Assembly (NCBI GenBank): GCA_002350725.1
Contig: DEFJ01000025.1
Coordinates: 2,565-66,564, forward strand
Source: Cyanobacteria bacterium UBA2855
GTDB taxonomy: Bacteria > Cyanobacteriota > Vampirovibrionia > Gastranaerophilales > Gastranaerophilaceae
Length of the DNA stretch: 64,000 bases
Direction of reading: 5' to 3'
The translations under genes and the position numbers were made by a program. The notes under the pieces were generated by a model. It searched no databases. It was not told the DNA's origin and saw only the letters and a list, made by a program, of their open reading frames with translations. Below, one piece after another: positions 1-45,004 of this stretch (positions are counted from its first letter, which is position 1; every line of letters begins with the position of its first letter).

Positions 1-788
1 TTTATGGCATTTGAATCCATAAAATCAATAGTTGCAGGATAAATTCGCTGCTCAATAATACTGTTTACCGCAGAAATTGAATCCTCTATAGTATCAAAAT
101 ATGCCATTACAACCTTGCTTGCTTCAGGCTTTGGTATAAGTTTTAATGTTGCCTCGGTTATAATACCTAATGTTCCCTCTGAACCGACAAACAAACTTGT
201 TAAATTATAACCTGTCGCATTTTTTACAGTATCAGCTCCTGTTTTCATAACTTTGCCATCGGCCATTACGACTTCCAAATTTAAAATATAATTTTTGGTA
301 GAACCGTATTTGAATGTTTTAGCACCACCCGAGGCTTGAGCTATACTGCCGCCGATAGTTGAAACTTTTAAATTTGACGGGTCGGGCGGATAAAATAATC
401 CTAAATTTTCAACTACTGCCTGCAAATCACCTAAAATAACCCCCGGTTGGACAACTGCCGTCATATTTTCTTTACTTATACTGATAATTTTATTCATTTT
501 TGAAAAATTTAAAACTATTCCTCCATGTTCTGTGCGACATGCACCAACAGTATTTGTCCCCGCGCCACGACAGATAATAGGAATTTTGTATTTTTTTGCA
601 CACTCAACTACTTCTATAACATCCTCTTTTGTTTGTACAAATACTACCGCATTCGGAATACTTTTTATCTCTTTTGTATTTGAAGCATCTTGAGCATAAG
701 CATAGCACTCCTCTTTCGTCGATAAGACATTCGAGGGGGTCAACTTCCTTTCTAAATCTTTTATTAAATTTTTCGTATTAGTCAACAT
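1..788 (-). CDS. FAD-binding oxidase, GlcD / D-lactate dehydrogenase family (partial, C-terminus outside window)
   Basis: Not in the ORF track because it runs off the window edge. Reverse-strand translation from ATG at 788-786 reads MLTNTKNLIKDLERKLTPSNVLSTKEECYAYAQDAS...IPIICRGAGTNTVGACRTEHGGIVLNFSKMNKII...VQPGVILGDLQ...YPPDPSNLKVSTIGGSIAQASGGAKTFKYGSTKNYILNLEVVMADGKVMKTG...SLFVGSEGTLGIITEATLKLIPKP. This is a typical FAD PCMH-type domain. The start overlaps the stop of the upstream giant ORF by 11 nt. Confidence 0.8.
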   Translation of the reverse strand, partial: MLTNTKNLIKDLERKLTPSNVLSTKEECYAYAQDASNTKEIKSIPNAVVFVQTKEDVIEVVECAKKYKIPIICRGAGTNTVGACRTEHGGIVLNFSKMNKIISISKENMTAVVQPGVILGDLQAVVENLGLFYPPDPSNLKVSTIGGSIAQASGGAKTFKYGSTKNYILNLEVVMADGKVMKTGADTVKNATGYNLTSLFVGSEGTLGIITEATLKLIPKPEASKVVMAYFDTIEDSISAVNSIIEQRIYPATIDFMDSNAI

Positions 789-3700
789 ATTCTGTCAGTT
801 TTTCAATATTTGCACTTAATTTTGCAAGAGTTTTATCTATATTATCTATTCTGTCATTAATTGTTGAATCAGATTGCTTACTCAAAATATCCGCAATCTT
901 ATCCAGTTGCTTTTCAATTCTGTCTAGCCTGAAATCTTGTTGCGTTATTTTGGCTTCAATAGAATCTAGGATTGAATTCAACTTTTCGTCTTGAGCATTT
1001 AATCTGCTGTATATAGCATTTTGTAATTCTTCTGCTCTCAAATCACTTTGGGACGAAATATTTTCGACTGTATTCTGTAAATTTTCAATATTACTTTCCT
1101 GTTCTTTGTGCTTTGAATTAATAAATTCGTAAAGTTCTGCTTTCTGAGGCAAATAAGTTTTAATCTCATCAAGAGTTTCCGGCACAGCACATCTGTCATA
1201 TATCGTAGATAGCGTATCAGAAGTACCGTCCATCCATTCACCTAAATACATCATTACGTTTTTCATAACTTCCATCAAATCTGAAGTTATGCTTGATTTT
1301 TTATAAATTTCAGAAAGATATTTTTCCATACGTCTTGCGACTATTTTATTATCCAACCCTGAAATAGCATCTATGCTATTATTAAGTTTTTCAACAATCT
1401 CATTATCAATTTGCTTTTGCGAAAGCAATAATTGATTTAATCTTGAGCTGATACTCACAACATGTTCATTCAAATCACCATGTTCTGCTCTTTGGATTTC
1501 ATTTTCCACAAGAACATTTCTCAAATCTTCTAGCGATTTTGACATTTTATTAAAATTTGCTGAAATAACAGATAAATCATCACCCTCAGCTTTTGATGCC
1601 ATATCATTTATAACTAATCTCAATTTTGCAAAATCTGATTCAACGTCTTGCATTGTATAAGTATACAAATCCATATCGTCAGTATTATTATTCATTTCAG
1701 AAAGCTGACGTTTTACTTCAGTAAGCATATGATGTAATTCGTTAGTTTTTACATCGACAAAATCTTTTATTTCTTCAGCTTCCTCTACAAACGAAATTTC
1801 ATTTGTCGCTGCAACTACCGCAGAAATAACAGATTCTTTTATCTCTGCAGCACTTTTTGTCATATCAATTTCGTTAATATTTTTATCAATTTTATTAAGC
1901 TCATCAATAAGCTTATTTAAAGAAGTTTCTGTTGAGGAATTTTCTGAAGCATCTTTAATAGTCTGAATTTGCTCTTCAACAATTTGCCTTATTTCGGAAA
2001 TTTCTTCTAAAATATCCGAATCATCCGACATTGCAATAATATCAACCTTATTATTCAATTCTTTAATAAGATTTTCAAATTCTTTACCTGATTTTATATC
2101 GGATTTTATGGTATCAAGTTTTTCATGTACATCTGTGAATTGCGAGATTTCATCCAATTTATAATCCAAGTTTTTGGAATAATTTTCCAAATTTTCACCG
2201 GCAGATACCAACTGCTCTCTTATTTCACTCAGACTATCTTGAATTTCCCCAATTTCATTATATTCGTCATCATTTGTTGATAACGCAATAACATCCAATT
2301 TAGCATCAATTGATTTAACAAATTTATCTAACTTATCATCGGAAGACGAGATGTTATCCTTTATATCTTCAAGACTTGTCCTGATTTCTCCAACTTCATC
2401 GAGGACTTCCTCATCATTATTCTGAGCGATAATATCTAATTTATTGTTTATTACATCTACAGATTCTTTTAAACCTTCAAGTCCCGAAACACCACTTGTT
2501 TCAGATATATTTTCTATTTTTTCTTTTACTTCCTGTATTTTTGTTACTAACTCGGAATTTATAGCCGAAGCAAGCAGTAAATCTAATTTTTCAATGACAG
2601 TAGAAATATTATCTTCGTTTTTTCCTGATTTTTTGTCGGAGCCTTTTTTACTGCTATTTAATATATCTTTTAATTCATCAATAGCCTCAAGAATTACGGT
2701 ATTATCAGTTGCCATTGTAATTACATCAAGCTTTGCACCAATCTCATCCAAAGAACCCAGAATTTTATCTGCCTTTTCACCGGAATTTTCAAATTTGCTG
2801 TTTATTAGGTTAAAAGTTTTATCTAAGGTAGATTTTACATCAGTAACTAACTCGGTAAGTTCGGTAATTGAATAATCTGTATCCTGTTTTAGCTCATGTA
2901 TTCTATCCGCCAAACTCTTATTTAAACCGCGAATAACTTCCAACATATCATCGTTATCAATTAACGGAAGTATAGTATTTTTAATAGCCTCAGGATCGAA
3001 GTTACTTTTTGTAATTGCTCTTTGAACTTCTGCCAACCCATCCAAAATAGAAGAAGTTGTAAAAGTTCTGCTTTCTTGTATCTTTGATTCAATCTGCAAT
3101 AATTGTGCCTGAAAATCTGATTGGATATCTTCTGATACAGACAGATTGCTCTGTACATTTGTATTTATTGTATGAAGTATATTATTAATAGTATCAAGAT
3201 TAGCACTTACCGTATAGTTTAAAGAATCATCCAATGCAGAAAGCTTATCAACAGTATCTTTATAAGAATTTTCTATATTTGAAAAAGCTTCACTTTCAAG
3301 AATTTCTTCTTTTAACTCTGAAACTAAGTTTGCATAAGATAATTCCAAATCATCCTTAACACCTTTAACATTGCCGGATAAATCTTTTTCAGTAATAGCT
3401 AAAATAGCATCCTTTAATGGTTCAAACTCGGAAGTAAGTGTCTCTATTTTTTCACTAACAGCATCATCGATTTTATTTATGACACTTTCTACGTCTTCTT
3501 TAATGGAATTCAAGCCGGAATCCAAGCTGTTAACGAGATTGGTAGAAGTTTCTGAATTATTGTTATACAAGCCTTCTATGTTTTGGATTATCAAATATAA
3601 ATTGTTGTTTATCACGGAAAGCATCTCATCAAGAGTTTCCTTAACATCAGATACCGCACCCTCTTTTTCTTTGGTAATCTGGTCATCAATCACATTAAAT

Positions 3701-6300
3701 TGCTGTCGAATATTTGCTAAAATTTCAATTAAACCTGAATTTCCGACAAGATTTGTCAGTTTTTCAGACAAGTCATCGAAACGGGATTTAATATCATCAA
3801 ATTCTTCTGTAGCATCTTCCAATTTTGTATTTGTAAGAGTTGAAATTTGTTCAACTTTTTCCAGATACTCATTTACCTTTGAGCCAACGACAGCAAATGC
3901 TTGCTCATAATTTTGAGAATACTCGGAAAGTTGATTCCCCATTTCTGAAATTTTCAATGACAACGCAGAATCATCATACTCAGGATTAAACTCAGCCAAA
4001 GCCGAAGTTATCAAATCCAAAGAAGATTTCACCGTATCAATTTCCCACAACAAGGTTTCCTTACACTCAAAAACTTTACCGCTTATTGATTCTGAAATTA
4101 TTTCAATAGCTTCTTTATGAGGTAAAACATCACTTGCAAGAATTTTTAATTCGGAAATTTCGGATAATGCTTCGCTGCTCTTTGCATTTAACTCACTCGT
4201 AGCTTTATCAATATTTTCTTTGTATTCATTTATTACCGATGAAATTTTATCAAGCTTTTCATTCTTTTCGGCACTTTTTTCATTGATTAAATTTTCTAAT
4301 ATTGCAGCATCAAAATTTCCTGTATTAGCTTTATTTATAGACATTAAAGCTGTCTTAATCTCAGCAATTTTATCTGATAAATCCTCTTGAGTTAAATTCA
4401 AAGAGGTATTCAGCTTATCAAGTTTTTCGTCCTTATTCCTGCTGTGTTCGGAAATTATACCCTCGATCTTTCCATAATCGAAACTCTCTGACTTGTTTGC
4501 ACTACCATACTCAATAATTGAATCTTTTACCATATCAAGTTTTTGGGAAATTTCGTCTTTCGCCTCAAAAACTCTTGAAGAAATTCTATCCGAAACACTT
4601 TCAATATTTTCTTTATGAGAAATAACATCATTAACCAACGCTTTTATTTCAGATATTCCGGATAAAGTATCCTGATTTTTAGAATTTATTTCTCCTGAAA
4701 TTCTATCAAGTGAGTCTTTATAATCACGAACTGTATTATTTAAAGTATCTAATTTTTCATCCTTTGATGCGCTATGCCCTGATATGAAATTTTCTACACG
4801 TTCATAATCAAAATCATTTGCTTTAGCATTTTTAATTTCGTCCAATGCTGCGGCATTGCTCTCTAACAAAGATTGCAAACGTTCAAAATTTTCGTTTCTT
4901 TCAATATCAAATCGACTTACCAAAACATCCAAATCAGACAATTTTTCCAAAATTTCCGAATTATCCTGAGATGCCTGAATTTTATCAGAAAAATCTACAA
5001 ATAAGTCTTTTATACTTGAAAGATAATCTCCCAATTTTTCTGCGGTGTTATTTTTGAAGTCATCAACAGAATTAGCTACACCTTGCACCTTATCAAGAAT
5101 TGACTCTAAATTAGCAGAAGATTTTGCAAGCAAATCCTCTCTTACATTATAAATTTCAGCTATATCCGTTTCCTGTAAGCGTTTTACAACATCCTCAGAA
5201 TTCCTTTCTATAGATTCGGAAACAGCCCTAACTTCTTCTGCAGAAGCTTTTATCAGATTTTCCATTCCCTCATTCAATCTGACAAATCTGTCTTCTATTA
5301 CATCAAATTTATCATTTATGGATTTTTCATTATCAGCATGAGCAGAAGAAAATACTTCTCTAAATGCATTCAAAATCTCTATCAAATTATTTACTTTTGC
5401 AGAAACCGAATTTTCATAATCTTCAGCTTTGTTATTAATTTGATTTTCTACTTTCTTTACATAGTCCAAAATATCATTGCTAATCATTATCTGGCTATCA
5501 CCGCTTTGAACTATTTTATTTGTAATATCGCCATTTAAACCGCTAAATCTTTCGTTTATATTATCAGAATAGTGCAAAACATTTGCTTTCAAAGATTCCA
5601 TAGTAGTTCTCATATCCAGAGAAGTACTGTTCATTGATTCTGCAATATTACTGCTCAAATATTTTAAATGATCGAATCCGTCATTCAATATTTTCTGAAT
5701 ATCATCGCCTAATGCATAAAGTTTTGAATTTACATTACCTAAATTAGAAGAAACAGAAGCTTCCAACCCCTCTATTTTTGAGTTTGTATCATTAATTGAA
5801 TGCTCAATTGTTCCATATACATAGTTATTCTTTGAGGAATAATCATCGACTTTATTTTTTAAATCGACAAGAGCAGAAACCATGTTTCCATGACGAAGAT
5901 TTGAATCGGATATAAAGTTTTCATAACCTTTAACAAGTTCATCGGTTCTTTGTCTCAATGTTTCAACCATAACTCCGTTCTTGACCGCATTTTCTAACGC
6001 ATCTAACCTGTCTAACAAAAGATTTTTTGCATCTGCATCACGATTTGCAAATGTTACAACAGAATTAAATCCTGAACGAAAGTTATCTGCAAGAGTTTTT
6101 ACCTCTTCCGCTATCTCCGAATTATCCGTAGCTCTTGAAATTGTATTCTGAAGTTTTTCAAGGGTATCTTCTACACCCTGAAAGCTCCTTACACCTGCTT
6201 GGATTTCAGTTAAAAGTTTTTTATAATCTTCGTTATTAACATCATTATCACGTTTTAAATCTTCAATAAGAACTGCTAGTTCGTCTACTCTGTCTGCCAT
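778..6300 (-). CDS. Giant (~1840 aa) acidic coiled-coil protein, function unknown
   Basis: Uninterrupted 5.5-kb ORF. The preferred start is MADRVDEL (ATG 6300-6298), preceded by aaggaaaaagaa. Composition is dominated by E/D/K/L/I/N/S with heptad-like periodicity. No hydrophobic TM segment, signal peptide, Walker motif or catalytic motif was seen. Internal repeats are present. Confidence 0.85.
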   Translation of the reverse strand: MADRVDELAVLIEDLKRDNDVNNEDYKKLLTEIQAGVRSFQGVEDTLEKLQNTISRATDNSEIAEEVKTLADNFRSGFNSVVTFANRDADAKNLLLDRLDALENAVKNGVMVETLRQRTDELVKGYENFISDSNLRHGNMVSALVDLKNKVDDYSSKNNYVYGTIEHSINDTNSKIEGLEASVSSNLGNVNSKLYALGDDIQKILNDGFDHLKYLSSNIAESMNSTSLDMRTTMESLKANVLHYSDNINERFSGLNGDITNKIVQSGDSQIMISNDILDYVKKVENQINNKAEDYENSVSAKVNNLIEILNAFREVFSSAHADNEKSINDKFDVIEDRFVRLNEGMENLIKASAEEVRAVSESIERNSEDVVKRLQETDIAEIYNVREDLLAKSSANLESILDKVQGVANSVDDFKNNTAEKLGDYLSSIKDLFVDFSDKIQASQDNSEILEKLSDLDVLVSRFDIERNENFERLQSLLESNAAALDEIKNAKANDFDYERVENFISGHSASKDEKLDTLNNTVRDYKDSLDRISGEINSKNQDTLSGISEIKALVNDVISHKENIESVSDRISSRVFEAKDEISQKLDMVKDSIIEYGSANKSESFDYGKIEGIISEHSRNKDEKLDKLNTSLNLTQEDLSDKIAEIKTALMSINKANTGNFDAAILENLINEKSAEKNEKLDKISSVINEYKENIDKATSELNAKSSEALSEISELKILASDVLPHKEAIEIISESISGKVFECKETLLWEIDTVKSSLDLITSALAEFNPEYDDSALSLKISEMGNQLSEYSQNYEQAFAVVGSKVNEYLEKVEQISTLTNTKLEDATEEFDDIKSRFDDLSEKLTNLVGNSGLIEILANIRQQFNVIDDQITKEKEGAVSDVKETLDEMLSVINNNLYLIIQNIEGLYNNNSETSTNLVNSLDSGLNSIKEDVESVINKIDDAVSEKIETLTSEFEPLKDAILAITEKDLSGNVKGVKDDLELSYANLVSELKEEILESEAFSNIENSYKDTVDKLSALDDSLNYTVSANLDTINNILHTINTNVQSNLSVSEDIQSDFQAQLLQIESKIQESRTFTTSSILDGLAEVQRAITKSNFDPEAIKNTILPLIDNDDMLEVIRGLNKSLADRIHELKQDTDYSITELTELVTDVKSTLDKTFNLINSKFENSGEKADKILGSLDEIGAKLDVITMATDNTVILEAIDELKDILNSSKKGSDKKSGKNEDNISTVIEKLDLLLASAINSELVTKIQEVKEKIENISETSGVSGLEGLKESVDVINNKLDIIAQNNDEEVLDEVGEIRTSLEDIKDNISSSDDKLDKFVKSIDAKLDVIALSTNDDEYNEIGEIQDSLSEIREQLVSAGENLENYSKNLDYKLDEISQFTDVHEKLDTIKSDIKSGKEFENLIKELNNKVDIIAMSDDSDILEEISEIRQIVEEQIQTIKDASENSSTETSLNKLIDELNKIDKNINEIDMTKSAAEIKESVISAVVAATNEISFVEEAEEIKDFVDVKTNELHHMLTEVKRQLSEMNNNTDDMDLYTYTMQDVESDFAKLRLVINDMASKAEGDDLSVISANFNKMSKSLEDLRNVLVENEIQRAEHGDLNEHVVSISSRLNQLLLSQKQIDNEIVEKLNNSIDAISGLDNKIVARRMEKYLSEIYKKSSITSDLMEVMKNVMMYLGEWMDGTSDTLSTIYDRCAVPETLDEIKTYLPQKAELYEFINSKHKEQESNIENLQNTVENISSQSDLRAEELQNAIYSRLNAQDEKLNSILDSIEAKITQQDFRLDRIEKQLDKIADILSKQSDSTINDRIDNIDKTLAKLSANIEKLTEYVD

Positions 6301-6484
6301 TTCTTTTTCCTTAAAAAATACACTTTCCCATATATATTTTACCAAACTTATAGCAATTTTATCAATATGTTAAGTAATCTTACGTATAGAAATCGTATTT
6401 TGAAAATAAGTTTTATTCCGCTCATTGCTTTATTTTTATTAGGTGATATAATACACATGACATGGAGTTGTGAGGTTATAAAGG

Positions 6485-9880: not shown

Positions 9881-11002
9881 ATGCTAAATATGAAAAATCT
9901 AAATCTCAAAGATAAAAGTGACAAATTATACTATATTGGCGGAATTGTTAGAGATGAAATCCTTGGAAAAGAAAGTTTCGACATTGATTTAACGTATGTC
10001 GGCAATGCAATCGAATACGCTAAGAATTGTGATATACAGATACTAAAAATTAATGAACCGTTTGGAACAGTAAGAGTTCTTGTTGACGGAAAGGAAGTTG
10101 ACATAGCCTCAACAAGAAAGGAGATTTACGAAAAAGCAGGGCATTTACCGACAGTTACGGAAATCGGTTGTTCTCTTAAAGATGATGTCTTAAGAAGAGA
10201 TTTTACCATAAACGCAATGGCAAAAAATTATAACACCGGAGAGGTTATCGACTATACCGGAGGATTAAACGACATAAAAAATAAAACAATCAGAGTATTA
10301 CATGACAAGAGTTTCATTGATGACCCTACAAGAATTATAAGGGCGCTTAAATTTTCTGTTCGCTTTGATTTTACGCTTGACAAGCATACAGAAGAATTAA
10401 GGGAGGATTATCTGAAAAATATAAACTATGATATGAGTTTTAAAAGAGTAAAAAAAGAGTTGATTGAAACCTTTAATCTAAATTCTCAAAAAGCATATGA
10501 CGAATTTATGGATAAAAATATCTATAAGCTTGTTACGAAAAAAACAGTAAATAAGCCCACAGTAAATATTGAAAATTTGATAAACAAGTATAAATCCGAA
10601 ATTAACCCCAAAAACATATGGCTGATATATGTTGGAACACTGATAGATTTAACCAATCTTGAATTAACAAAAGAAGAACAAAATATATTAAATGAATATA
10701 AAAACCTGAAGCAATCAACATATACGTCAGATTTTGATATATACAAAATCTTTTCAGATTGCACGACAGAAGCCATCTTGTTATATGCTATTCTTGACGA
10801 TGAAAAAAATGCAACAAGATTTTTAGATAAATTAAAACGGATAAAAATCTCAATAGGCGGAGAAGAACTTAAAACTATTGGAATTAAGCCTTCAAAGAAA
10901 TATCAAGAATGTTTTGATTACATTTTAAAAGAAAAACTAAATAATCCCGAAATTTCTACTCAAGAAGAGCTTAAACTTGCGAGATTATTTTTTGGATTAT
11001 AA
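9881..11002 (+). CDS. Class-II tRNA nucleotidyltransferase / poly(A) polymerase family protein (CCA- or A-adding)
   Basis: YYIGGIVRDEILGK...DIDL head-domain motif and RRDFTINAMA motif of the PolyA_pol family. Confidence 0.8.
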   Translation: MLNMKNLNLKDKSDKLYYIGGIVRDEILGKESFDIDLTYVGNAIEYAKNCDIQILKINEPFGTVRVLVDGKEVDIASTRKEIYEKAGHLPTVTEIGCSLKDDVLRRDFTINAMAKNYNTGEVIDYTGGLNDIKNKTIRVLHDKSFIDDPTRIIRALKFSVRFDFTLDKHTEELREDYLKNINYDMSFKRVKKELIETFNLNSQKAYDEFMDKNIYKLVTKKTVNKPTVNIENLINKYKSEINPKNIWLIYVGTLIDLTNLELTKEEQNILNEYKNLKQSTYTSDFDIYKIFSDCTTEAILLYAILDDEKNATRFLDKLKRIKISIGGEELKTIGIKPSKKYQECFDYILKEKLNNPEISTQEELKLARLFFGL

Positions 11003-11012
11003 AATTTGTCTA

Positions 11013-11345
11013 CTATGCCAATGAATAGCTCATTTCTTCTTTTATTTCCTGACTTAAACGCTGACGAACCTGACCATATTCAGCCTCAACCATTTCTAAC
11101 TGAATTTGATATTCTTGCATTTGCTGATTTAGTCTTTCTTCCATAATCTTTATTTTAGCTTGACGCTGTTGCAAAGTTTTCATTACAGGAGAATCGGGAT
11201 CATAGTCTGTTCCGACCTTCATCAAATCATCACCTGCATTGACTAAACTGGATTTTGTTGATGTGATTTCAGAAATTTTGAACTGCAAGTCCATTTTTCG
11301 ACCTTGCAATTGACGTAACCTTAAAGTATCACTAATCATTCCCAT
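11013..11345 (-). CDS. 110-aa 'termini-only' mini-paralog of the filament-like family
   Basis: Starts MGMISDTLRLRQLQGRK, which aligns without gaps to MGMAASQARWLALTARK of the 414/497-aa proteins. The C-terminal heptad helix (AKIKIMEERLNQQMQEYQIQLEMVEAEY...) resembles their C-terminal helix. SD aaggaag is present. Confidence 0.7.
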   Translation of the reverse strand: MGMISDTLRLRQLQGRKMDLQFKISEITSTKSSLVNAGDDLMKVGTDYDPDSPVMKTLQQRQAKIKIMEERLNQQMQEYQIQLEMVEAEYGQVRQRLSQEIKEEMSYSLA

Positions 11346-11359
11346 TTTCTTTGCTTCCT

Positions 11360-11635
11360 TTATCTGGTTTCATTCAGATTGTTTCCCCTTAGAAAGCTGT
11401 GTTGGTTATTTTCTGCTATCAGCTGCTCCATCTTTCTGAACTGATGTTGGTGATAATTTAGTCTGTACTGAGCCATTTTTAATTTCTTTTTCATGGTCAG
11501 AAAGTCTTTTATGCCTTCCACAATCGAGTTCATCAAGGATTTTAGAGGACTCTTTCTGATGATAAAGTTCTTTGAATATATCAAGAAATCGAACATTCTT
11601 TTTATATTCATCTCTAAAGTATCTTGAAGCGCCAT
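11360..11635 (-). CDS. Hypothetical basic protein (91 aa)
   Basis: Good SD (taggag, 8 nt upstream). Ends 14 nt upstream of the 110-aa gene, so the two are probably co-transcribed. Confidence 0.6.
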   Translation of the reverse strand: MALQDTLEMNIKRMFDFLIYSKNFIIRKSPLKSLMNSIVEGIKDFLTMKKKLKMAQYRLNYHQHQFRKMEQLIAENNQHSFLRGNNLNETR

Positions 11636-11861
11636 GTTTATCTACTCCTATAACACTTTAGATTTCTACATGTATATAAAAACATAGGTTCACAAAATAT
11701 TGCTTATTTTGTAACATGTTCTTAACATGTCTTAATCTAATGTGTTTTTCCATATTACTCAAAGAATGATTTGCTCACTCTCCGATATATATATCGGAAA
11801 AAAGTTAAAAAACTTTAACACATAATCATTAATACAATATAATATGTAATATTTTTTTACA

Positions 11862-12698
11862 TTATAAGTTTTGAATAGCTTTACTATCGCTGTCAATAGA
11901 CTCTTTAAGCATTTTCTTGACAACATCACCTTGAGTATCAAGCATCTTACAAACAGTTTCGATATTTCTTACTTTATTTGAAAGAATAGCATCAGCATTA
12001 GCGGTAATATTGCCTGTAACTCTTTGATAAGCAGCAAGAGCAGGAGTTGTAATACCTTGCATCAAGTTCCCCATAACAAGTGCAGGCAATCCATATTCAC
12101 CCAAATATGGCGCTGCTGATTGCATAATACCGCCCCAACCTGAAATCATACCGGCAACAGGAAGAACAATATTTCTACCGACAAAACCGTAACCGTTTGC
12201 AGCACCGACACCGTATGCTGCAGCACTTGCAACGTCGGCAATACCGCCTACACCTGAAGCAAAACCTGTCGGAGTACCTGAAACAGAAGACCAGGAAGTT
12301 GCACTATCAGTACCCCAGCCTGACAATGCTGAAGCACCGCCTGTTGCAAAACCTTCAGACCAAGAAATAGGTGCTGCCCCACCGGGAAAACCCGAATAAT
12401 TATATAAAGAATTCAAACCAAAAGCTGAACCGCCGTTTAATCCTGAATAATATGAAGTCCCGGGAATATTCATTGTCTCCGAACTTCCAAATAAATTTGC
12501 ATAAGAGGACGGTGCCATTAAGCTTGCCAACCTGTATAAGAAGCTGCCTGACATACCCCAACCGGTACCTTGGCCTGAACCTGAAATTGTCAAATCTCTT
12601 AACTGGTCATAAGTTTCCCAAAGTTGAGCTTTCGCATCAGACCCTGCGGATCCAAATTTGTTTGCTATTACAAGATAACTATCATTCTTATATGACAT
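11862..12698 (-). CDS. Gly/Ser/Ala/Tyr/Trp low-complexity protein with ordered helical C-terminus (278 aa)
   Basis: SD agagagg. Sits 34 nt downstream of the 414-aa filament-like gene. The long middle region resembles SGSGQGTGWGMSGSF...GGASALSGWGTDSATSWSSVSGTPTGFASGVGG. No signal peptide. Confidence 0.7.
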   Translation of the reverse strand: MSYKNDSYLVIANKFGSAGSDAKAQLWETYDQLRDLTISGSGQGTGWGMSGSFLYRLASLMAPSSYANLFGSSETMNIPGTSYYSGLNGGSAFGLNSLYNYSGFPGGAAPISWSEGFATGGASALSGWGTDSATSWSSVSGTPTGFASGVGGIADVASAAAYGVGAANGYGFVGRNIVLPVAGMISGWGGIMQSAAPYLGEYGLPALVMGNLMQGITTPALAAYQRVTGNITANADAILSNKVRNIETVCKMLDTQGDVVKKMLKESIDSDSKAIQNL

Positions 12699-12732: not shown

Positions 12733-13977
12733 TTATGATTCGAAAGTCTTGAATGTAGATTCAATATTCTTCTGAATTACTTTTTGTACAGCTTCCATTT
12801 CGGTTTGTAATGCTTCTTGTTCCGTATCAAGCTGTCTTAATCTCAATTCAAGGGTTCTATCCTGTTCTTGAATTTTTTCTGTCTTTGCATTGATATCTGC
12901 AATCCTTTTTTCATAAACTTCCATCTTATAATGATATTGATTCATCGCATCTTCATATGCAGCCGTATCGGTTTTTGTGTTGGTTGATACAGGATATGTA
13001 GCTGAAGAATCTTCGTATCTTATAGATTGAATTCTGCCTTCATCGTTTATGTCGACAATAGCTTTTTGTTTATTTTCAATTTTTGTTGACAAGTCTTGTG
13101 CTACATAATAAGCCAGTTTTGATTGGTTTTCTGTAGGGGCTTTAGGGTCAGGACCGCTTTTTGAACATGTTTCTAAATCCTTTGCACAGGCGTACCTTAC
13201 TTGACCTTGGAATACCCATTTATAAATTTCAGACGGTTTTGATTTTGCAAAATTTGAATTTGGCCAATCTCTACAAATTTGTTCATATGCAGCTTTATCC
13301 GTAGTATCTTCTGGGTCATAACTTTGCAAATTTGATGTTCCTACATATTTCGGGATATTTGTTTTTGAATAATAATCCGGAACCATTTCTGCAGTAGAAG
13401 CAAGAGCATCGGAATAGGTGAAATGAATTTGACCGTCGCTTCCTGTGTATGTCATTAATGCAGATTTTTTCTTACCAATTTCCGGATAATTTTCAATGAT
13501 ATTTTCATAAGCCGTTCTCTGTGCTTCAACATTTTGGTCGTATGGAGTAACATGAGCTCCTTTAATATAATATTCATCACCTTGTTTTGTAATATCAATT
13601 CTTTCAATATAATCTTTTACACCTGAAGTGCCCATCGCAACCTGCGGATTTACAAGCATATTTTCAATACCCGTATAAACATCAGCATAATGAAAGTGAG
13701 TAACCATATAATTATATCCGCCCGGATCATTGTTTAACAAAGACATTTCTTCGATTGTTTCACTAATTGTTCCGTCCATATAAGTATATTCAAGCTTAGT
13801 AAAATCCTGTGTACTAGGAGCCGTTGGAACTTCAAGAGCCAATAACTCATTAAAGGTATTTGCACTCTTCATCGCAAGGGCTGTACGCGCCTGATTTACC
13901 TGCTGACCTTCATATTCTACGTTAGTTTTTCTTGCCGTTAATGCAAGCCATCTTGCTTGCGATGCTGCCATACCCAT
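12733..13977 (-). CDS. Filament-like protein, paralog 1 (414 aa): conserved N/C-terminal helices, variable core
   Basis: SD aaggaga. The N-terminal ~65 aa and C-terminal ~85 aa are clearly homologous to ORF 41562..43055, while the middle is unalignable. Confidence 0.85.
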   Translation of the reverse strand: MGMAASQARWLALTARKTNVEYEGQQVNQARTALAMKSANTFNELLALEVPTAPSTQDFTKLEYTYMDGTISETIEEMSLLNNDPGGYNYMVTHFHYADVYTGIENMLVNPQVAMGTSGVKDYIERIDITKQGDEYYIKGAHVTPYDQNVEAQRTAYENIIENYPEIGKKKSALMTYTGSDGQIHFTYSDALASTAEMVPDYYSKTNIPKYVGTSNLQSYDPEDTTDKAAYEQICRDWPNSNFAKSKPSEIYKWVFQGQVRYACAKDLETCSKSGPDPKAPTENQSKLAYYVAQDLSTKIENKQKAIVDINDEGRIQSIRYEDSSATYPVSTNTKTDTAAYEDAMNQYHYKMEVYEKRIADINAKTEKIQEQDRTLELRLRQLDTEQEALQTEMEAVQKVIQKNIESTFKTFES

Positions 13978-14070
13978 AAGCAGTTCTCCTTATGTATATA
14001 TATTTATCCTGTCTACTACATTGAACTTTTTAATGATTATTTTTTAAAAGTCAATATATCCTACAATATA

Positions 14071-14098
14071 TTATACGGCACTATGTTTTAATTATTTT
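14071..14098 (-). promoter_or_regulatory. Candidate sigma-28-like promoter (AAAA-N15-GCCGTATAA) for filament paralog 1
   Basis: The minus-strand 11-mer AGTGCCGTATA is shared with the paralog-2 upstream region. It resembles the FliA/SigD -10 GCCGATAA. There is no TTGACA -35, unlike other promoters in the window. Confidence 0.35.
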
Positions 14099-14169
14099 GC
14101 TATTATGCTCAAAAATACAACATTTACTGTAGAAAAATCTATACATATACATTGCCTATATGACATACT

Positions 14170-14200
14170 AAAAGCACCCTAATTATACAAGGGTGCTTTT
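14170..14200. terminator. Bidirectional rho-independent terminator downstream of rpsA
   Basis: aaaAGCACCCtaattatacaaGGGTGCTtttt: a 7-bp GC-rich stem flanked by an A-run and a T-run. Confidence 0.75.
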
Positions 14201-14226
14201 ATATATTATATAATAATGCAGAACAA

Positions 14227-15294
14227 CTATTCAGCCGATTCAACACCATCATTTGGCTCATCAATTGTGAGGGCAATTCTCTTGTCGTTAGGATTAAACT
14301 TAAGGATATAAGTCATTACTTTATCCCCAACTTGTAAAATATTACCGCCTCTATTTTGGAGTTCGACAACTTCATTATGAGGTAATAACGCTTCAACACC
14401 AGGGAATACCTCTACGAATGCGCCAAAATGCTTAATTCTTGTGATAGTACCTTCAATCTTGTCCCCCTCTTTGATTTGCTTTTCAGCTTCCACCCAAGGG
14501 TCAGGTTCAAGATTTTTCAAACTCAAAGAAACACGTTGTTTTTCATGGTCAACAGCGATAACTTCGACATCAATTTGGTCACCTACATTAAGAACATCTG
14601 TCGGATGATCAATCCATCTCCATGAAAGTTGAGAAAGCGGAAGTAAACCATCAATACCGCCAAGGTCAACAAACGCACCAAAATCAGTAATTCTTACTAC
14701 ATCACCCTTCAGCACTTGACCGGCTTCGATTTGAGAGAATACGGTTTTTCTTGCTTCAACAACACTATCATCATATACTTTCTTATTTGATAAAATAAAA
14801 TTATTTTGCTGACTGTCAAGAGTTAATATCTTCAACTCAATTTTTGAGCCTACTTCAAAATCAGATTCTTTACTTCTTAACTGAGAAGAAGGAACAAAAC
14901 CTCTAACCCCTGATACTTCAACAAGAATACCACCTTTAACTATTCCGGCAATTGTACCGAGAATTGTTTCATCGGCTTCCTTAATTTTTTCAAGTTCTTT
15001 CCAAGCATAAGCAAAATCAACTTTTTTACGAGAAAGAAGGAATTTCCCATCTTCATCTTCTTCTCTTATAATTAAAAATTCATATTCCTTACCCTTTTCG
15101 AACTTATCTTCAACTTTTTCATCTTTGTCAACAGCTTCTCTGGTTGGGACCACTGCAATAGTCTTAGCACCAATATCAACCATTACGCCTTGACCGTCAT
15201 ACCCGCAAACAATGCCTTTTATAAGGTCACCTTTTTGAAACTTATAATCATATTGCTTTAGCAGTTCTTCAAAATCTAATTCTTTTGATGTCAT
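14227..15294 (-). CDS. rpsA: 30S ribosomal protein S1 (4 S1 domains)
   Basis: Repeated S1 OB-fold signatures (G.V..I...GA.VD.GG..G.LP.S). The start MTSKELDF at 15294 has SGGAG upstream. Confidence 0.9.
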   Translation of the reverse strand: MTSKELDFEELLKQYDYKFQKGDLIKGIVCGYDGQGVMVDIGAKTIAVVPTREAVDKDEKVEDKFEKGKEYEFLIIREEDEDGKFLLSRKKVDFAYAWKELEKIKEADETILGTIAGIVKGGILVEVSGVRGFVPSSQLRSKESDFEVGSKIELKILTLDSQQNNFILSNKKVYDDSVVEARKTVFSQIEAGQVLKGDVVRITDFGAFVDLGGIDGLLPLSQLSWRWIDHPTDVLNVGDQIDVEVIAVDHEKQRVSLSLKNLEPDPWVEAEKQIKEGDKIEGTITRIKHFGAFVEVFPGVEALLPHNEVVELQNRGGNILQVGDKVMTYILKFNPNDKRIALTIDEPNDGVESAE

Positions 15295-41485: not shown

Positions 41486-41516
41486 CAAAAAAAACGACTA
41501 AGTAGAACCCAGTCGT
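41486..41516 (-). terminator. Rho-independent terminator of filament paralog 2
   Basis: Minus strand: ACGACTgggttctacttAGTCGT followed by TTTTTTTT. Confidence 0.75.
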
Positions 41517-41561
41517 TGGAAATTAATAGGAAAAAGGAAAAAGGAAAGGAAATTTTTGTTA

Positions 41562-43055
41562 TTATGCTGAGAAAGTTTTGAAAGTATCAGATGTATTCTT
41601 TTCAATAACTTTAGATACAGCATCTTTTTCTGTTTGAATAGCTTTTTGCTCAGTATCAAGTTGTTTCAATCTCAATTCAAGATTTTTATCTTCAGCTTGA
41701 ATTACTTCAATTTTAGCGTTGATTTTTTCAACAGCTTGATCATATAAAGCTTTATCATATTCATATTGATTCATTGCATCGTTATATTTTTCTTGATCGG
41801 TAGCAGTTTCAGTTGTCAAAGGATAATCAACATAGATTAAAGAACCGTCATCTAATGCTGTCGGAATACTCAAGGTAATCAATCTGCCGGAAGAATCTTT
41901 TTCAATCTTACAATTTTGAACACCTTTAAATTCTTCAATTTTTTGTTCACTACCGATTGTGTAGCAGTTAATTTTTGATAAAGAAGTTTTTGTTGTTCCG
42001 TCATATATAGCATTTTCTAAATCATTTACCGCATAGAAGTATGGTCTGTGAATACCTGTAGTAGTATCAAGGGCATATCTGACCATCCAGTCTTTTTGAC
42101 CATATTTTTGAGTTAATAATTCTCTCCAAGCAGCTTCTTCTTTTAAAGTATTAGCAAGCTGAGTCGGAGATAAAGTGCTTAAATATTCATCGTCAGTCGC
42201 ATAAGAGCTTGTTGTAATGCTGTTTATTTGATCTTGAGTAAGGTAGTTTTTATTTGTTACTTGCTCATACGGTTCATAATAATAATTACCGTCTGCATTT
42301 TTTTCAATTAAAGTAGTACTGTATTCCGCATCATCCTCGGCATTACCGGTATTTACTTCATTATATAATGCAATAAGCAAATCATCTTCGGTTACCCCCG
42401 GTAAATCAGTACGATTTTCATCATCGTCAAGAGTGTAGAAACCGCCTGTTGCAGCATCTTTAAACACTTGAGATATAATTTTATTGGTTGTCTGATCGTA
42501 TTGGTAATATTCAAAATTAGCAATTTCGTTTTGCGGTACTTGTTGTCTTGGTTGTTTTTCATAAGCCAATTCTTCATAGTAAGGACCGGCAGCATCTGTC
42601 TTGACATTGTAAGTCTTACCATTAACAACTATAGAATTTCCAAGAGTAGTGGTACCCGTAAGAGAACCTAATTCTCTAAGATTTCTTGAACCTATAGCAT
42701 AGATATAATTACCTGCTGTACCCAACTGAGAAACAACACTTGTCGCAGCAGCAATTGCAGCATAATCGTCTTGCCATTTTGACAAATAACTCATTGTATA
42801 CATACCGTTTGATTGAGCAATCATAGAGGTAACAGTATTTGTTAAAGCCCCATCAGAGAATGTATAAATTGTTTTTGTATAACTGTCGACAGAAGGAGGT
42901 GTAGGTACTGACATACCTAACAAATCATTATAATAATTTGCAGATTCGTTAGATAACATTGTACGCTGTTGGTTAATCTGTTGACCTTCAAACTCGACAT
43001 TGTTTTGTCTTGCCGTAAGCCCTAAAAATCTAGCTTGTGATGCTGCCATTCCCAT
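41562..43055 (-). CDS. Filament-like protein, paralog 2 (497 aa)
   Basis: MGMAASQARFLGLTARQNNVEFEGQQINQQRT... and ...YNDAMNQYEYDKALYDQAVEKINAKIEVIQAEDKNLELRLKQLDTEQKAIQTEKDAVSKVIEKNTSDTFKTFSA match paralog 1. The core is unrelated. Confidence 0.85.
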   Translation of the reverse strand: MGMAASQARFLGLTARQNNVEFEGQQINQQRTMLSNESANYYNDLLGMSVPTPPSVDSYTKTIYTFSDGALTNTVTSMIAQSNGMYTMSYLSKWQDDYAAIAAATSVVSQLGTAGNYIYAIGSRNLRELGSLTGTTTLGNSIVVNGKTYNVKTDAAGPYYEELAYEKQPRQQVPQNEIANFEYYQYDQTTNKIISQVFKDAATGGFYTLDDDENRTDLPGVTEDDLLIALYNEVNTGNAEDDAEYSTTLIEKNADGNYYYEPYEQVTNKNYLTQDQINSITTSSYATDDEYLSTLSPTQLANTLKEEAAWRELLTQKYGQKDWMVRYALDTTTGIHRPYFYAVNDLENAIYDGTTKTSLSKINCYTIGSEQKIEEFKGVQNCKIEKDSSGRLITLSIPTALDDGSLIYVDYPLTTETATDQEKYNDAMNQYEYDKALYDQAVEKINAKIEVIQAEDKNLELRLKQLDTEQKAIQTEKDAVSKVIEKNTSDTFKTFSA

Positions 43056-43091
43056 AGTTGGATTTCCTTTCGATTAGTTCCTTATGTCATG

Positions 43092-43120
43092 ATATACGGC
43101 ACTCTCGATAGGAAACTTTA
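43092..43120 (-). promoter_or_regulatory. Candidate sigma-28-like promoter (TAAA-N16-GCCGTATAT) for filament paralog 2
   Basis: Shares AGTGCCGTATA with the paralog-1 upstream region. Sits 36 nt upstream of the ATG. Confidence 0.35.
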
Positions 43121-43148
43121 ATAATTTATCGCATCATGTTAAGTAATG

Positions 43149-44552
43149 TTAAGCTTGGTATGTCCACCACTTCCAAGATGGCTCTAAATTAACATCTTCC
43201 TGACTATAATAAGTTGCGATATGTTCTCTTATTTCGTCAAGTTCTTTAAAGCCCCACCACGCACCTTCGCTGACGCTATCTAAGTAATCTTCACCTGCTT
43301 GGTAAGCAACATGTTCACCCCATTTAGGTAAATTTGTAGGATATAAATATGCTGTGGCATGGGTCACTTCATGAACCATTACTTCAACCAAATCATACCA
43401 TTTTGTGCTTGAATTTTTTGCCATGTTTACATCTAAAAACATACCGCCCATACCATCACCCTCATCATCATCAGAATACCATGAGGTTCCGGCACTGTTC
43501 ATATAATACAAGTATACACCCAGCGTTGTTCCGCTACCGCTGCTGTCTTTATTTAAGTCATCATATGCAATTTTATTTGCAGCTTTTAATCTGGCAAGAG
43601 CATTTGCTTGATCTGTCATGCCGGCAGCATTAAAATATTCTTCCGTTCTTGCGATAACAAACGCTTTCTTTTGATCTAATGTCATTGCACTGAATTTTGC
43701 TTGAATTTTTGCGGCATAAGCCTCTATTCTTTGTTGATATTCACGTTCGACAGAATTTGCCAAATCCGAATCATTTGCTATCGTTCCTGTTTGAATATCA
43801 ATCATACTGTCAATTAAATCAGGATAAGCTTTTATAAATGCTTTAATTTCATCCGCTGACAATACACTGTTTGAATTGTCATCCAATACATTAAATACTT
43901 TATTTATCTGGCTGAAAAAATATCCGAAATCTTCTTCTAAATCATCATCTTGAGTCAATTTTACAAGTTGAGCTCTTGTAATACCTGTATCTTTTGTTAT
44001 AGAACCGTTTTTGGAATTTACATAAGTAAAAAACTTATCAAAAACAAGATTTACTTTTTCGTCTAACTCAGTTTCACTATCTCCGCCATCTTCACCCCCT
44101 GTAGGGTCAGTAGGATCGGTTGGATTTGTCGGATCGGTTGGATCTGTTGGATCTGTTGGATCCGTTGGATATATCGGTTCCTCTATAGGAAGCGTCGGAT
44201 TAGTCGGATTAGTTGAACCAGAAGATTTATGGTGCAATTCATAAATAACTTGTTTAATATCTTTAATTTGCTGTTCGGACAAATCACTAATAGTAATTGC
44301 ATACCCTTTTTTAATATTTTCCGTAGCCGTAGCATCATGAACACAAGAGTTCTTCGTATTGCCTGAAACGGCAATATGATTTGCTATACTAAATATGGTT
44401 TCATTCTCGTTTTCTTCCAAGACTTTTTCCACCAACTGTTTAATCTCCATGGCTTCATCCGGATTTTTCAAAGTGAAGTCTTTTGTAGTCTGCAAGTCAA
44501 CTTTCTTTTGTGTAGCTACCATCTTTAAAAACGGGGTATTTTGAATTTCCAT
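43149..44552 (-). CDS. HExxH (zincin-like) protein with (PTD/PTN)n linker and an EF-hand-like loop (467 aa)
   Basis: Start MEIQNTPF at 44552 has a strong SD (aaggag, 7 nt upstream). HEVTH is encoded at 43359-43373. The linker reads PTNPTNPTLPIEEPIYPTDPTDPTDPTDPTNPTDPTDPT. DDNSNSVLSADE fits the 12-residue EF-hand loop pattern. No signal peptide. Confidence 0.75.
   Translation of the reverse strand: MEIQNTPFLKMVATQKKVDLQTTKDFTLKNPDEAMEIKQLVEKVLEENENETIFSIANHIAVSGNTKNSCVHDATATENIKKGYAITISDLSEQQIKDIKQVIYELHHKSSGSTNPTNPTLPIEEPIYPTDPTDPTDPTDPTNPTDPTDPTGGEDGGDSETELDEKVNLVFDKFFTYVNSKNGSITKDTGITRAQLVKLTQDDDLEEDFGYFFSQINKVFNVLDDNSNSVLSADEIKAFIKAYPDLIDSMIDIQTGTIANDSDLANSVEREYQQRIEAYAAKIQAKFSAMTLDQKKAFVIARTEEYFNAAGMTDQANALARLKAANKIAYDDLNKDSSGSGTTLGVYLYYMNSAGTSWYSDDDEGDGMGGMFLDVNMAKNSSTKWYDLVEVMVHEVTHATAYLYPTNLPKWGEHVAYQAGEDYLDSVSEGAWWGFKELDEIREHIATYYSQEDVNLEPSWKWWTYQA
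44101..44170. repeat. 9-bp tandem repeat (GGATCNGTT)n encoding the (PTD)n linker
   Basis: ggatcggttggatttgtcggatcggttggatctgttggatctgttggatccgttgga: about 7 imperfect in-frame units. Confidence 0.85.
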
Positions 44553-44641
44553 AAAGTACTCCTTATATTCATCGTATATATCGGAATACTTTTTTATTAT
44601 CTTTAGTGATTTCAAAATATATGTTACAAATTTTTACATAC

Positions 44642-44728: not shown

Positions 44729-45004
44729 CTACCCTAAGAAAGAAATTCTCTGATCCGGAGTTTTACTTTGCATATTAGCTTGTTCAGATGAGGAAACTAC
44801 ATATTTATAAGTTCTTGCAATTTTCTTAATAACCGTTGAAATCGGGTTAGACGGCATAGAATTACTCAAATTACCCTCAAATTCTCTACGAGCATTTGGA
44901 TTTTGCAAAGCAAGAATCGCCATGTTCGGTGTTACAGTATTTCCATCACCGAAAGAAATGTACTGTTTAGATGTGTTAAATTTTACAGGATTAATTGTTA
45001 TCAT
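44729..45004 (-). CDS. Orphan small protein (91 aa)
   Basis: Strong SD gaggagga. Has its own consensus promoter and its own terminator. The sequence MITINPVKFNTSKQYISFGDG... has no recognisable motif. Confidence 0.7.
   Translation of the reverse strand: MITINPVKFNTSKQYISFGDGNTVTPNMAILALQNPNARREFEGNLSNSMPSNPISTVIKKIARTYKYVVSSSEQANMQSKTPDQRISFLG

Follow-up and report, generated by a model that had tools for sequence, protein, structure and literature searches.

Flagellin (FliC/Hag; PF00669 and PF00700) combines conserved helical ends with a variable, dispensable insert, lacks a signal peptide, occurs as several paralogues per genome, and is expressed from a sigma-28-type promoter with its own terminator. 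The other axial proteins of the flagellum, namely FlgE of the hook, FlgK and FlgL of the junction, FliD of the cap, and the rod proteins, are also paralogues with terminal helices in the core and beta-rich inserts. Sigma-28 (FliA)-type promoters are the class of late flagellar genes, and HrpA/EspA-class subunits polymerise on a type III base. Here, we describe a protein family that resembles these subunits in its design. Two long members, A (497 amino acids, aa) and B (414 aa), are encoded in a 64,000-nucleotide (nt) stretch of Cyanobacteria bacterium UBA2855, a member of the Gastranaerophilaceae (contig DEFJ01000025.1, positions 2,565 to 66,564, of assembly GCA_002350725.1); this whole stretch is referred to as the window. 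A preliminary description made from the sequence alone had compared the termini and cores of A and B with those of self-assembling filament subunits.

Gastranaerophilales are widespread gut relatives of Cyanobacteria, and literature searches found neither a report of a cultured member of the order nor a paper describing the A/B family. The incomplete flagellar gene set of most Gastranaerophilales has been known since 2013–2014. FlgB, FlgC, FlgF/G, FliE, FlhA, FlhB, FliI, FliJ, FliP, and FliR are present in four genomes, for which no FlgD/E/H/I/K/L, FliC/D/F/G/M/N, MotA/B, or FliS is listed (Soo et al., 2014, Table S5). In the host order, the export gate, ATPase, and rod of the flagellar type III system are retained, and the hook, junction, filament, and cap genes are lost. 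Unlike flagellin hosts, the hosts of the present family are thus without motor and hook genes, and FlgE, FlgK, FlgL, and FliD are among the components missing from them (Soo et al., 2014). About 75% of Gastranaerophilales genomes retain no more than a subset of the flagellar genes (such as flhB, fliI, and flgG), for which a role in secretion has been postulated (bioRxiv 10.64898/2026.04.24.720558); these reduced exporters form the same setting as that of the A/B family, and no substrate is named there. Considering the results described below, we propose, with a probability of roughly 45%, that A and B are late flagellar type III substrates forming an axial or filament-like structure.

Conserved termini and predicted structure

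Both open reading frames (ORFs) lie on the minus strand of the window (Table 1), and the motif strings quoted in the preliminary description for their termini agree with the translations. BLASTP aligned N-terminal residues 1–78 of A and B with 58% identity (E 4e-27) and the last 87 residues with 57% identity (E 2e-28), and this pairwise comparison detected no significant similarity in the region between the two terminal blocks. In a tblastn search of the whole window with the terminal blocks, the A and B genes were the only significant matches. The claim that the cores are unalignable therefore stands for pairwise BLASTP but not for profiles, because A-only and B-only orthologue profiles gave a single collinear alignment of 1–496 with 1–413 (E 9.5e-72), in which the part of the core beside the C-terminal helix is visibly homologous (A ~300–420, B ~225–335). 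The cores thus share a scaffold and differ mainly in a distal insert.

Conservation among A orthologues was nested, ranging from 0.84–0.93 in the termini through 0.5–0.8 in the flanking inner domain to 0.26–0.40 in segment 141–300, which contains 30–45% gaps and is absent in many orthologues of 333–360 aa. The hypervariability previously ascribed to the core holds for this internal insert of the A type only, whereas B orthologues are 58–90% identical over their full length. The conserved polar residues of the N-terminal helix include N19, E21, E23, G24, Q25, Q26, N28, Q29, R31, and T32. Terminus identity between A and B was equal within one locus or genome (0.70 for the N terminus, 0.64 for the C terminus) and between genomes (0.71 and 0.65), compared with N/C identities of 0.90/0.83 within the A type and 0.95/0.91 within the B type, indicating that purifying selection has acted on the termini over the long term. 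Conservation across the order was seen for both types.

In a comparison of A with a 92%-identical orthologue (locus L006, 10001..11494), the ratio of nonsynonymous to synonymous substitution rates (dN/dS) was 0 in the N helix, 0.03 in the C helix, and ~0.06 in all core segments, including the variable one. In contrast to the flagellin core, that of the present family is thus under purifying selection, and diversifying selection on the core, which had been part of the initial interpretation, was rejected at the single divergence level compared. In the same comparison, dS was 0.35 in the terminal-helix codons and 0.87–1.35 in the core, i.e., ~2.5–4 times lower in the former, a value that rests on small counts of 10–12 synonymous differences; either constraint at the nucleotide level or, as in the exchange of fliC cassettes, recombination at the conserved ends could account for it.

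In AlphaFold2 models built with family alignments (pLDDT, the predicted local distance difference test, 89.0 for A and 89.7 for B), a lone N-terminal helix of ~45 residues and a C-terminal helix of 76 residues are predicted to enclose a beta-rich core, and in model A the N-terminal helix is followed by a Pro-rich turn. In Foldseek searches of the PDB, flagellar filaments were the top three matches for both models, with best E values of 3.7e-5 (probability 0.80) for A and 8e-3 for B, and a search of viral structures (BFVD) with model A gave no meaningful match. In the models, the short N-terminal helix that leads directly into beta domains is more like that of FlgE than that of FliC, and the ND1 helices of flagellin have no counterpart in the single 45-residue N-terminal helix predicted here. 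The C-terminal helix of hook and rod proteins is much shorter than the 76-residue helix of the family.

Table 1. Coordinates of family genes, predicted regulatory motifs, and neighbouring genes in the window
Feature	Position	Strand	Remarks
Family member A, 497 aa	41562..43055	minus	N helix 3–47, beta-rich core, variable insert ~141–300, C helix 421–496 (predicted)
Family member B, 414 aa	12733..13977	minus	N helix 2–47, mixed alpha/beta core, C helix 338–413 (predicted)
Hairpin-only member, 110 aa, starts MGMISDTLRLRQL	11013..11345	minus	N helix and C helix, core absent; B operon
Sigma-28-type promoter motif of A, TAAAGTTT-N12-GCCGTATA, full TAAAGTTTcctatcgagagtGCCGTATA	43094..43120	minus	~40 nt before ATG
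Two direct CTTAACAT half-sites	43136..43153	minus	Spaced by one helical turn; immediately upstream of the -35 element of A
Sigma-28-type motif, TAAAGTTT-N11-TCCGATA	11792..11817	minus	Ahead of the 91-aa and 110-aa gene pair
Sigma-28-type motif of the HEVTH-protein gene	44579..44605	minus	Found by motif search
Terminator-like hairpin	41493..41517	minus	11 pairs and T run, 45 nt past the A stop codon
c3, 255 aa	47353..48120	minus	CPHGxPxGACPICNG motif, helical C-terminal part; opens the c3-c2-c1-A cassette in ~38 loci
c2, 500 aa	45854..47356	minus	About four hydrophobic segments; cassette partner in ~40 loci
c1, ~155 aa	45379..45840	minus	Helical; directly upstream of A-type genes in ~41 loci
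91-aa ORF, cluster c21	44729..45004	minus	Conserved; in a subset of cassettes
HEVTH protein, 467 aa (ORF reaches 44615 from TTG, 488 aa)	43149..44552	minus	PTDPTDPTD repeat linker, EF-hand-like segments, C-terminal HEVTH
Gly/Ser-rich partner, 278 aa (MSYKNDSYLV...)	11862..12698	minus	C-terminal coiled coil; follows B
Conserved 91-aa ORF of the B operon	11360..11635	minus	Precedes the 110-aa gene

Family extent and subtypes

A and B are paralogous members of a superfamily specific to the Vampirovibrionia (Melainabacteria) lineage. The family comprises >5000 clusters at 90% identity. Identical or near-identical copies of both occur in metagenome-assembled genomes (MAGs) named Candidatus Gastranaerophilaceae, and each query gathered >4500 clusters at 90% identity, every named one of which is annotated as 'hypothetical'. 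A scan of one genome per GTDB species detected at least 529 family stretches, often several per genome, and the best 80 of these were all from Gastranaerophilales/Melainabacteria MAGs, a few of them under old, wrong names. When the 95 full members in the loci fetched for comparison (L numbers) were clustered by core, they comprised the A type (330–600 aa), the B type (~415 aa, with length versions of 325, 415, 509, and 599 aa), a divergent c23 type of ~575 aa starting with MGLAASQARLLTITARK, and two rarer types, 3 and 4, of ~540 and 662 aa.

The absence of a flagellin signature noted earlier was borne out, as neither a flagellin model (PF00669/PF00700) nor a rod/hook model (Flg_bb_rod PF00460, Flg_bbr_C PF06429) was matched by A or B in hmmscan searches of Pfam and NCBIfam at E <=1. 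Scans of A, B, and their cassette neighbours against Pfam, NCBIfam, and PHROG gave coiled-coil noise only, PDB sequence and profile searches with the family found nothing, including no relation to SctF, HrpA, or EspA, and plasmid records held no match. The N-terminus of the family, MGMAASQARFLGLTARQNNVEFEGQQ, is polar and charged, and the reported lack of a signal peptide and of a prepilin motif holds for A and B, in which neither kind of hydrophobic stretch is present. Type IV pilins and pseudopilins, by contrast, carry a class III signal (G/FTLxE) and a hydrophobic helix. A relationship with PspA/Vipp1/ESCRT-III was rejected, because residues 296–401 of B matched TIGR02977 only with E 0.013 and 15 bits against a cutoff of 243; this match sits amid coiled-coil noise such as SMC and prefoldin.

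Hairpin-only members

A tblastn search of phage records matched MW495066.1, deposited as 'Microcystis phage MaAM05', which encodes proteins of 109 aa (Ma109) and 110 aa in which the family N helix is fused directly to the C helix. The two proteins matched the N-terminal hidden Markov model (HMM) of the family with E 2.8e-18 and 2.2e-10 and the C-terminal HMM with E 1.1e-18 and 1e-9, respectively. In hhalign comparisons, Ma109 aligned with the N and C helices of the A profile (E 6.7e-14 and 3.9e-15), with those of B (E 1.8e-13 and 1.4e-16), and over its full length with the family of the 110-aa ORF of the window (E 3.1e-10); furthermore, jackhmmer seeded with Ma109 gathered A, B, and this 110-aa ORF from the window. 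The direct link between the 110-aa ORF and A/B was unconvincing (hhalign E 0.009–0.017, within the control range), and when 1.84 billion representatives were searched with a profile of this ORF, only ~110-aa proteins (167 clusters) were retrieved. Linked via the hairpin-only proteins, A, B, and the 110-aa ORF thus make three family members in the window.

The existence of natural hairpin-only proteins indicates that the helical hairpin, as the common module, is autonomous and that the core has been inserted into it; the tip of the hairpin may carry an inserted domain. By analogy, the hairpin-only members resemble SctF needle, HrpA, and EspA subunits, which likewise consist of two helices and a loop, and at ~110 aa they are about as large as HrpA/EspA-class subunits. 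The next gene after that of Ma109 encodes a 314-aa homologue of the Gly-rich 278-aa partner of B (42% identity, E 6e-70). The Gly-rich partner thus stands beside a family member in both the window and MW495066.1, suggesting that the pairing is ancient.

MW495066.1 (GenBank/INPHARED) is a 273,876-bp sequence from hospital wastewater with 54% G+C, of which positions 1–250000 were analysed as L088–L093. It encodes ribosomal proteins, many aminoacyl-tRNA synthetases, smc-scpAB, secDF, and enzymes of the tricarboxylic acid cycle, as well as a pomA-motB-fliL-fliM-fliN cluster and a SigF-like sigma factor, and several of its best-match gene names are cyanobacterial (ycf3, psbU, and sasA). Judging from this gene content, it is almost certainly a bacterial contig and not a phage, and its source may be a Vampirovibrionia-like bacterium that preys on Microcystis or is associated with it. 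The S1 protein of the contig shares only 35% identity with that of the window, which places it in a distant lineage. A phage-borne origin of the family was thus rejected, the lone phage match being a mislabelled bacterial contig, the PHROG scans giving noise only, and the surroundings in the window (G+C ~33%) being housekeeping genes. In two lineages, glyS lies between a family operon and flagellar genes (L004 15066..17123; L091 19233..21359), in the order B operon-glyS-fliNOPQR in the Gastranaerophilaceae locus L004 and pomA-motB-fliL-fliM-fliN...glyS...hairpin-only member in MW495066.1; this placement may be a remnant of ancient synteny.

Sigma-28-type promoter motif

The promoter motif upstream of A (Table 1) is followed by a ribosome-binding site, GAAAGGAA. 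The motif aTTAAAGTTT-N12-TG(C/T)CGATAAcA was found upstream of 71 of the 78 non-redundant A-type genes, at a median of 42 nt before the ATG and with N12 spacing in 63 of the 71; its compact form, TAAAGTTT-N12-G(C/T)CGATAA, agrees in motif comparison with the Escherichia coli sigma-28 consensus TAAAGTTT-n11-GCCGATAA (PMC2859248). One A-type gene, located behind TAAAGAAA-N12-GCCGACAC, belongs to an organism (L016) that is one of the four genomes of Soo et al. (2014).

We trained a weight matrix on the A-type genes alone and used it to score the 200-nt region preceding each gene in 1.43 Mb of loci, with 933 other genes as background. All seven c23-type genes (p = 2e-6), the single type 4 gene, and the pair of 91-aa and mini genes in all three loci scored above the 99th percentile, both type 3 genes above the 95th percentile, and the HExxH-protein gene above the 99th percentile in 6 of 12 cases (p = 3.5e-4), whereas none of B, c1, c2, and c3 scored high. 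In MW495066.1, the sole strict match in 250 kb, both strands included, is TAAAGGTT-N12-TCCGATAA, directly upstream of Ma109. Most subtypes (A, c23, 3, and 4) are thus predicted to be transcribed from sigma-28 (FliA)-type promoters, a feature of flagellin genes that the motif indicates for these four types and not for B. A relaxed promoter pattern gave 7 matches over the whole window compared with 6.0 expected and was thus not enriched, so that the signal is visible only by position-specific analysis and the weight matrix.

The 8-mer GCCGTATA occurs five times in the window compared with 0.83 expected, and none of 100 shuffles reached five. Two copies lie upstream of A and B, and three are intragenic (39049+, 49926-, and 54795-); of these three, two run antisense to their gene and the third falls in a region with a spurious antisense ORF. 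As a promoter element common to A and B, GCCGTATA was rejected because it is not conserved among B orthologues, whose upstream region is sigma-70-like. At L040 (~10001..11128), only short ORFs were found at the site expected for an A-type gene, behind a high-scoring sigma-28-type promoter motif (~9925); the gene may be frameshifted or pseudogenised, or an assembly error may be involved.

Half-sites TGTTACAA / CTTAACAT, 10–11 bp apart and located at -33/-32 and -22 from the TAAAG of the -35 element, recur at a constant distance in the majority of promoters of the A, c23, 3, and 4 types (loci L006–L085). As read from their spacing and conservation, the tandem half-sites are probably a binding site of an additional regulator. 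The 5' leader of A (43056..43092, minus strand) has two AAGGAA motifs, and the ribosome-binding site overlaps with one of them; the pair is not universal among orthologues, and we take it to be reminiscent of the CsrA-binding sites on Bacillus hag mRNA.

Export genes and a FliA-like sigma factor near family genes

The flagellar-type export genes fliN/sctQ-fliO-fliP-fliQ-fliR lie 6 kb from the B operon in L004/L005, and fliN-fliO-fliP-fliQ is directly adjacent and divergent to a c23-type gene in L030 and L067. In L079 and L081, flhB (Bac_export_2, E 1.5e-57) is followed immediately by the gene of a 220-aa sigma factor, for which FliA/WhiG is the best NCBIfam model, matched over the full length with E 1.2e-20 and a score below the curated cutoff. 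Unlike in injectisome systems, the export genes near the family are of the flagellar type (FliO, FliP, FliQ, FliR, and FlhB), and no injectisome set was seen.

Neighbouring genes

A closes a cassette conserved in ~40 species, consisting of c3, c2, c1, an optional 91-aa ORF, an optional HExxH/EF-hand protein, and the A-type gene, with polyprenyl synthase and signal peptidase genes downstream. No cassette protein could be assigned to a known family in Pfam, NCBIfam, or PHROG, and a chaperone role for c1 is only a guess. The HEVTH protein of 467–488 aa has no signal peptide, and its orthologues, in which the linker is Gly/Thr-rich, often precede family genes. Its HEVTH motif is zinc-metalloprotease-like, and the protein is possibly secreted as an effector belonging to the sigma-28-type regulon of the family. 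The B operon has the order B, Gly-rich protein, 74-aa ORF (in some loci), 91-aa ORF, and 110-aa mini, and is the same in L004 and L072.

Discussion

The results support the initial interpretation in part and sharpen it considerably, as the flagellin-like architecture is strengthened by the AlphaFold models, the hairpin-only members, and the nested conservation. Membership among flagellins or axial proteins fails the sequence tests, and the claim is thus limited to a relation of 'works like', by analogy, instead of 'is a'. Under the proposed mechanism, the family proteins would be late substrates of the reduced flagellar export apparatus, and stacking via the terminal helices may build an axial, filament-like structure that has the inserts on its outside. 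Such a structure would functionally replace the hook-filament part, probably in adhesion or secretion and not in swimming.

Several points weigh against this proposal. The TM-scores of the Foldseek matches to flagellin are only 0.10–0.16, and the B matches are not significant (E 8e-3 or worse). The matches may reflect only the order 'long helix, beta domain, long helix', and as far as the models go, the likeness to flagellar filaments is one of the order of secondary-structure elements and no fold match. In hhalign comparisons with E. coli FlgB/C/E/F/G/K/L and FliC, the family did no better than unrelated controls (E 0.025 or worse for FlgB, C, E, F, G, K, and L, which is the control range), and family termini alone were indistinguishable from unrelated controls in the comparison with E. 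coli axial proteins; the PDB profile search was also empty. B has no sigma-28-type promoter, its conserved upstream region being sigma-70-like (TTGACT-N17-TAAAAA). Sigma-28 regulons also include cytoplasmic proteins, such as motor and chemotaxis components, and the promoter is therefore no proof of secretion. The conserved c3-c2-c1 cassette, including a membrane protein, could be a separate, unrelated assembly machine. MEL.A1, for which a canonical flagellin has been reported, carries family members as well (L021 and L078), so that the family is not simply a replacement wherever it is found. In addition, according to Soo et al. (2014), recognisable FliF/FliG are absent in the four Gastranaerophilales genomes, so that a functional basal body may not assemble.

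The family is a concrete candidate output of the incomplete flagellar apparatus, being abundant, order-wide, flagellin-like in design, and in most subtypes preceded by a late-flagellar-type promoter motif, and together with the sigma-28-type regulon it would be the first candidate substrate for the reduced exporter. If it forms a surface filament, this would be a new class of type-III-assembled appendage and likely a host-facing antigen or adhesin, which, lacking flagellin sequence domains, might, as a speculation, escape TLR5 recognition. A further-reaching version, to which we give rather little credence, is that the distal flagellum was rebuilt from an unrelated helical-hairpin family after the loss of hook, filament, and motor, yielding a non-rotating appendage with a flagellar type III exporter and FliA-like timing, in which A, B, c23, types 3 and 4, and the minis would take hook-, junction-, filament-, and cap-like roles. 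If this is true, type-III-built filaments would include a third kind, in addition to the flagellum and the injectisome needle/pilus. Even if the family does not form filaments, the promoter with tandem half-sites and the hairpin-plus-insert superfamily annotate thousands of hypothetical proteins.

Among the alternatives to a filament-like structure, it is unlikely, though worth serious consideration, that the proteins are not exported and act as a cytoplasmic or membrane-associated coiled-coil scaffold or regulator of the sigma-28 motility regulon, in which the inserts would give specificity and the hairpin would dock on a partner, for example the export gate, the C-ring, or the c2 membrane protein. 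The lack of a signal peptide and the cytoplasmic components normally included in sigma-28 regulons are consistent with such a scaffold, as are the tight linkage of the A-type gene to c3-c2-c1 with its protein of about four hydrophobic segments, the conserved polar helix residues, which fit a specific partner interface, and the lack of detectable homology to any exported axial protein in the PDB profile and hhalign searches. However, a scaffold leaves unexplained the several paralogues per genome with the same termini and differing or dispensable inserts, as well as the conservation up to the very first and last residues and its flagellin-like nesting.

The promoter and neighbourhood evidence that points to a late axial structure applies equally to flagellar type III-exported monomeric effectors or adhesins, in which the helices would be an export-signal/chaperone module and the insert a payload. 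The sigma-28-type motif also precedes a non-family, effector-like HExxH/EF-hand protein that has no signal peptide, and the small helical c1, encoded directly upstream, could be a chaperone. Export and chaperone regions are, however, usually poorly conserved, whereas conservation here is highest in the termini (0.90/0.83 within the A type), in which many polar residues are invariant, and the hairpin-only members are without any payload; we therefore regard this explanation as distinctly improbable.

That the family consists of true but extremely diverged flagellin, hook-associated, or hook homologues is more doubtful still. The rank of flagellar filaments in the Foldseek searches of both models, the weak register of the family N-terminus with residues 1–73 of E. 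coli FlgE (E 0.05), and the presence of at least five large paralogue types, set against five missing distal axial proteins (FlgE, FlgK, FlgL, FliC, and FliD), would agree with such a descent; there is, however, no match to Flagellin_N/C, Flg_bb_rod, or Flg_bbr_C at E <=1, the hhalign results are at control level, and the models have TM-scores of ~0.1 and no counterpart of the ND1 helix. Recent partial gene conversion between unrelated genes, which has the single-genome pattern as its sole support, is excluded because the A/B terminus identity is equal within and between genomes, orthologues within a type are far closer, and both types are conserved across the order.

Other features near family genes

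A giant protein of 1855 aa (778..6345, minus strand of the window) was read as largely coiled coil; it has repeated apolipoprotein A1/A4/E-like helical segments below the Pfam cutoff, a very weak VWA match, and no link to the family. Type IV pilin-like genes (cluster c4, 200–420 aa), the products of which have N-termini (GFTLAEVLITLGIIGVVAAM) quite unlike those of the family, often lie within a few kb of family genes. They are located downstream of family genes, sometimes directly, in L007, L030, L031, L049, L051, L056, and L064, and two more were found at L004 4129..4785 and 13532..14536. A sigma-28-like motif was present at 1 of 32 c4 pilin-like genes.

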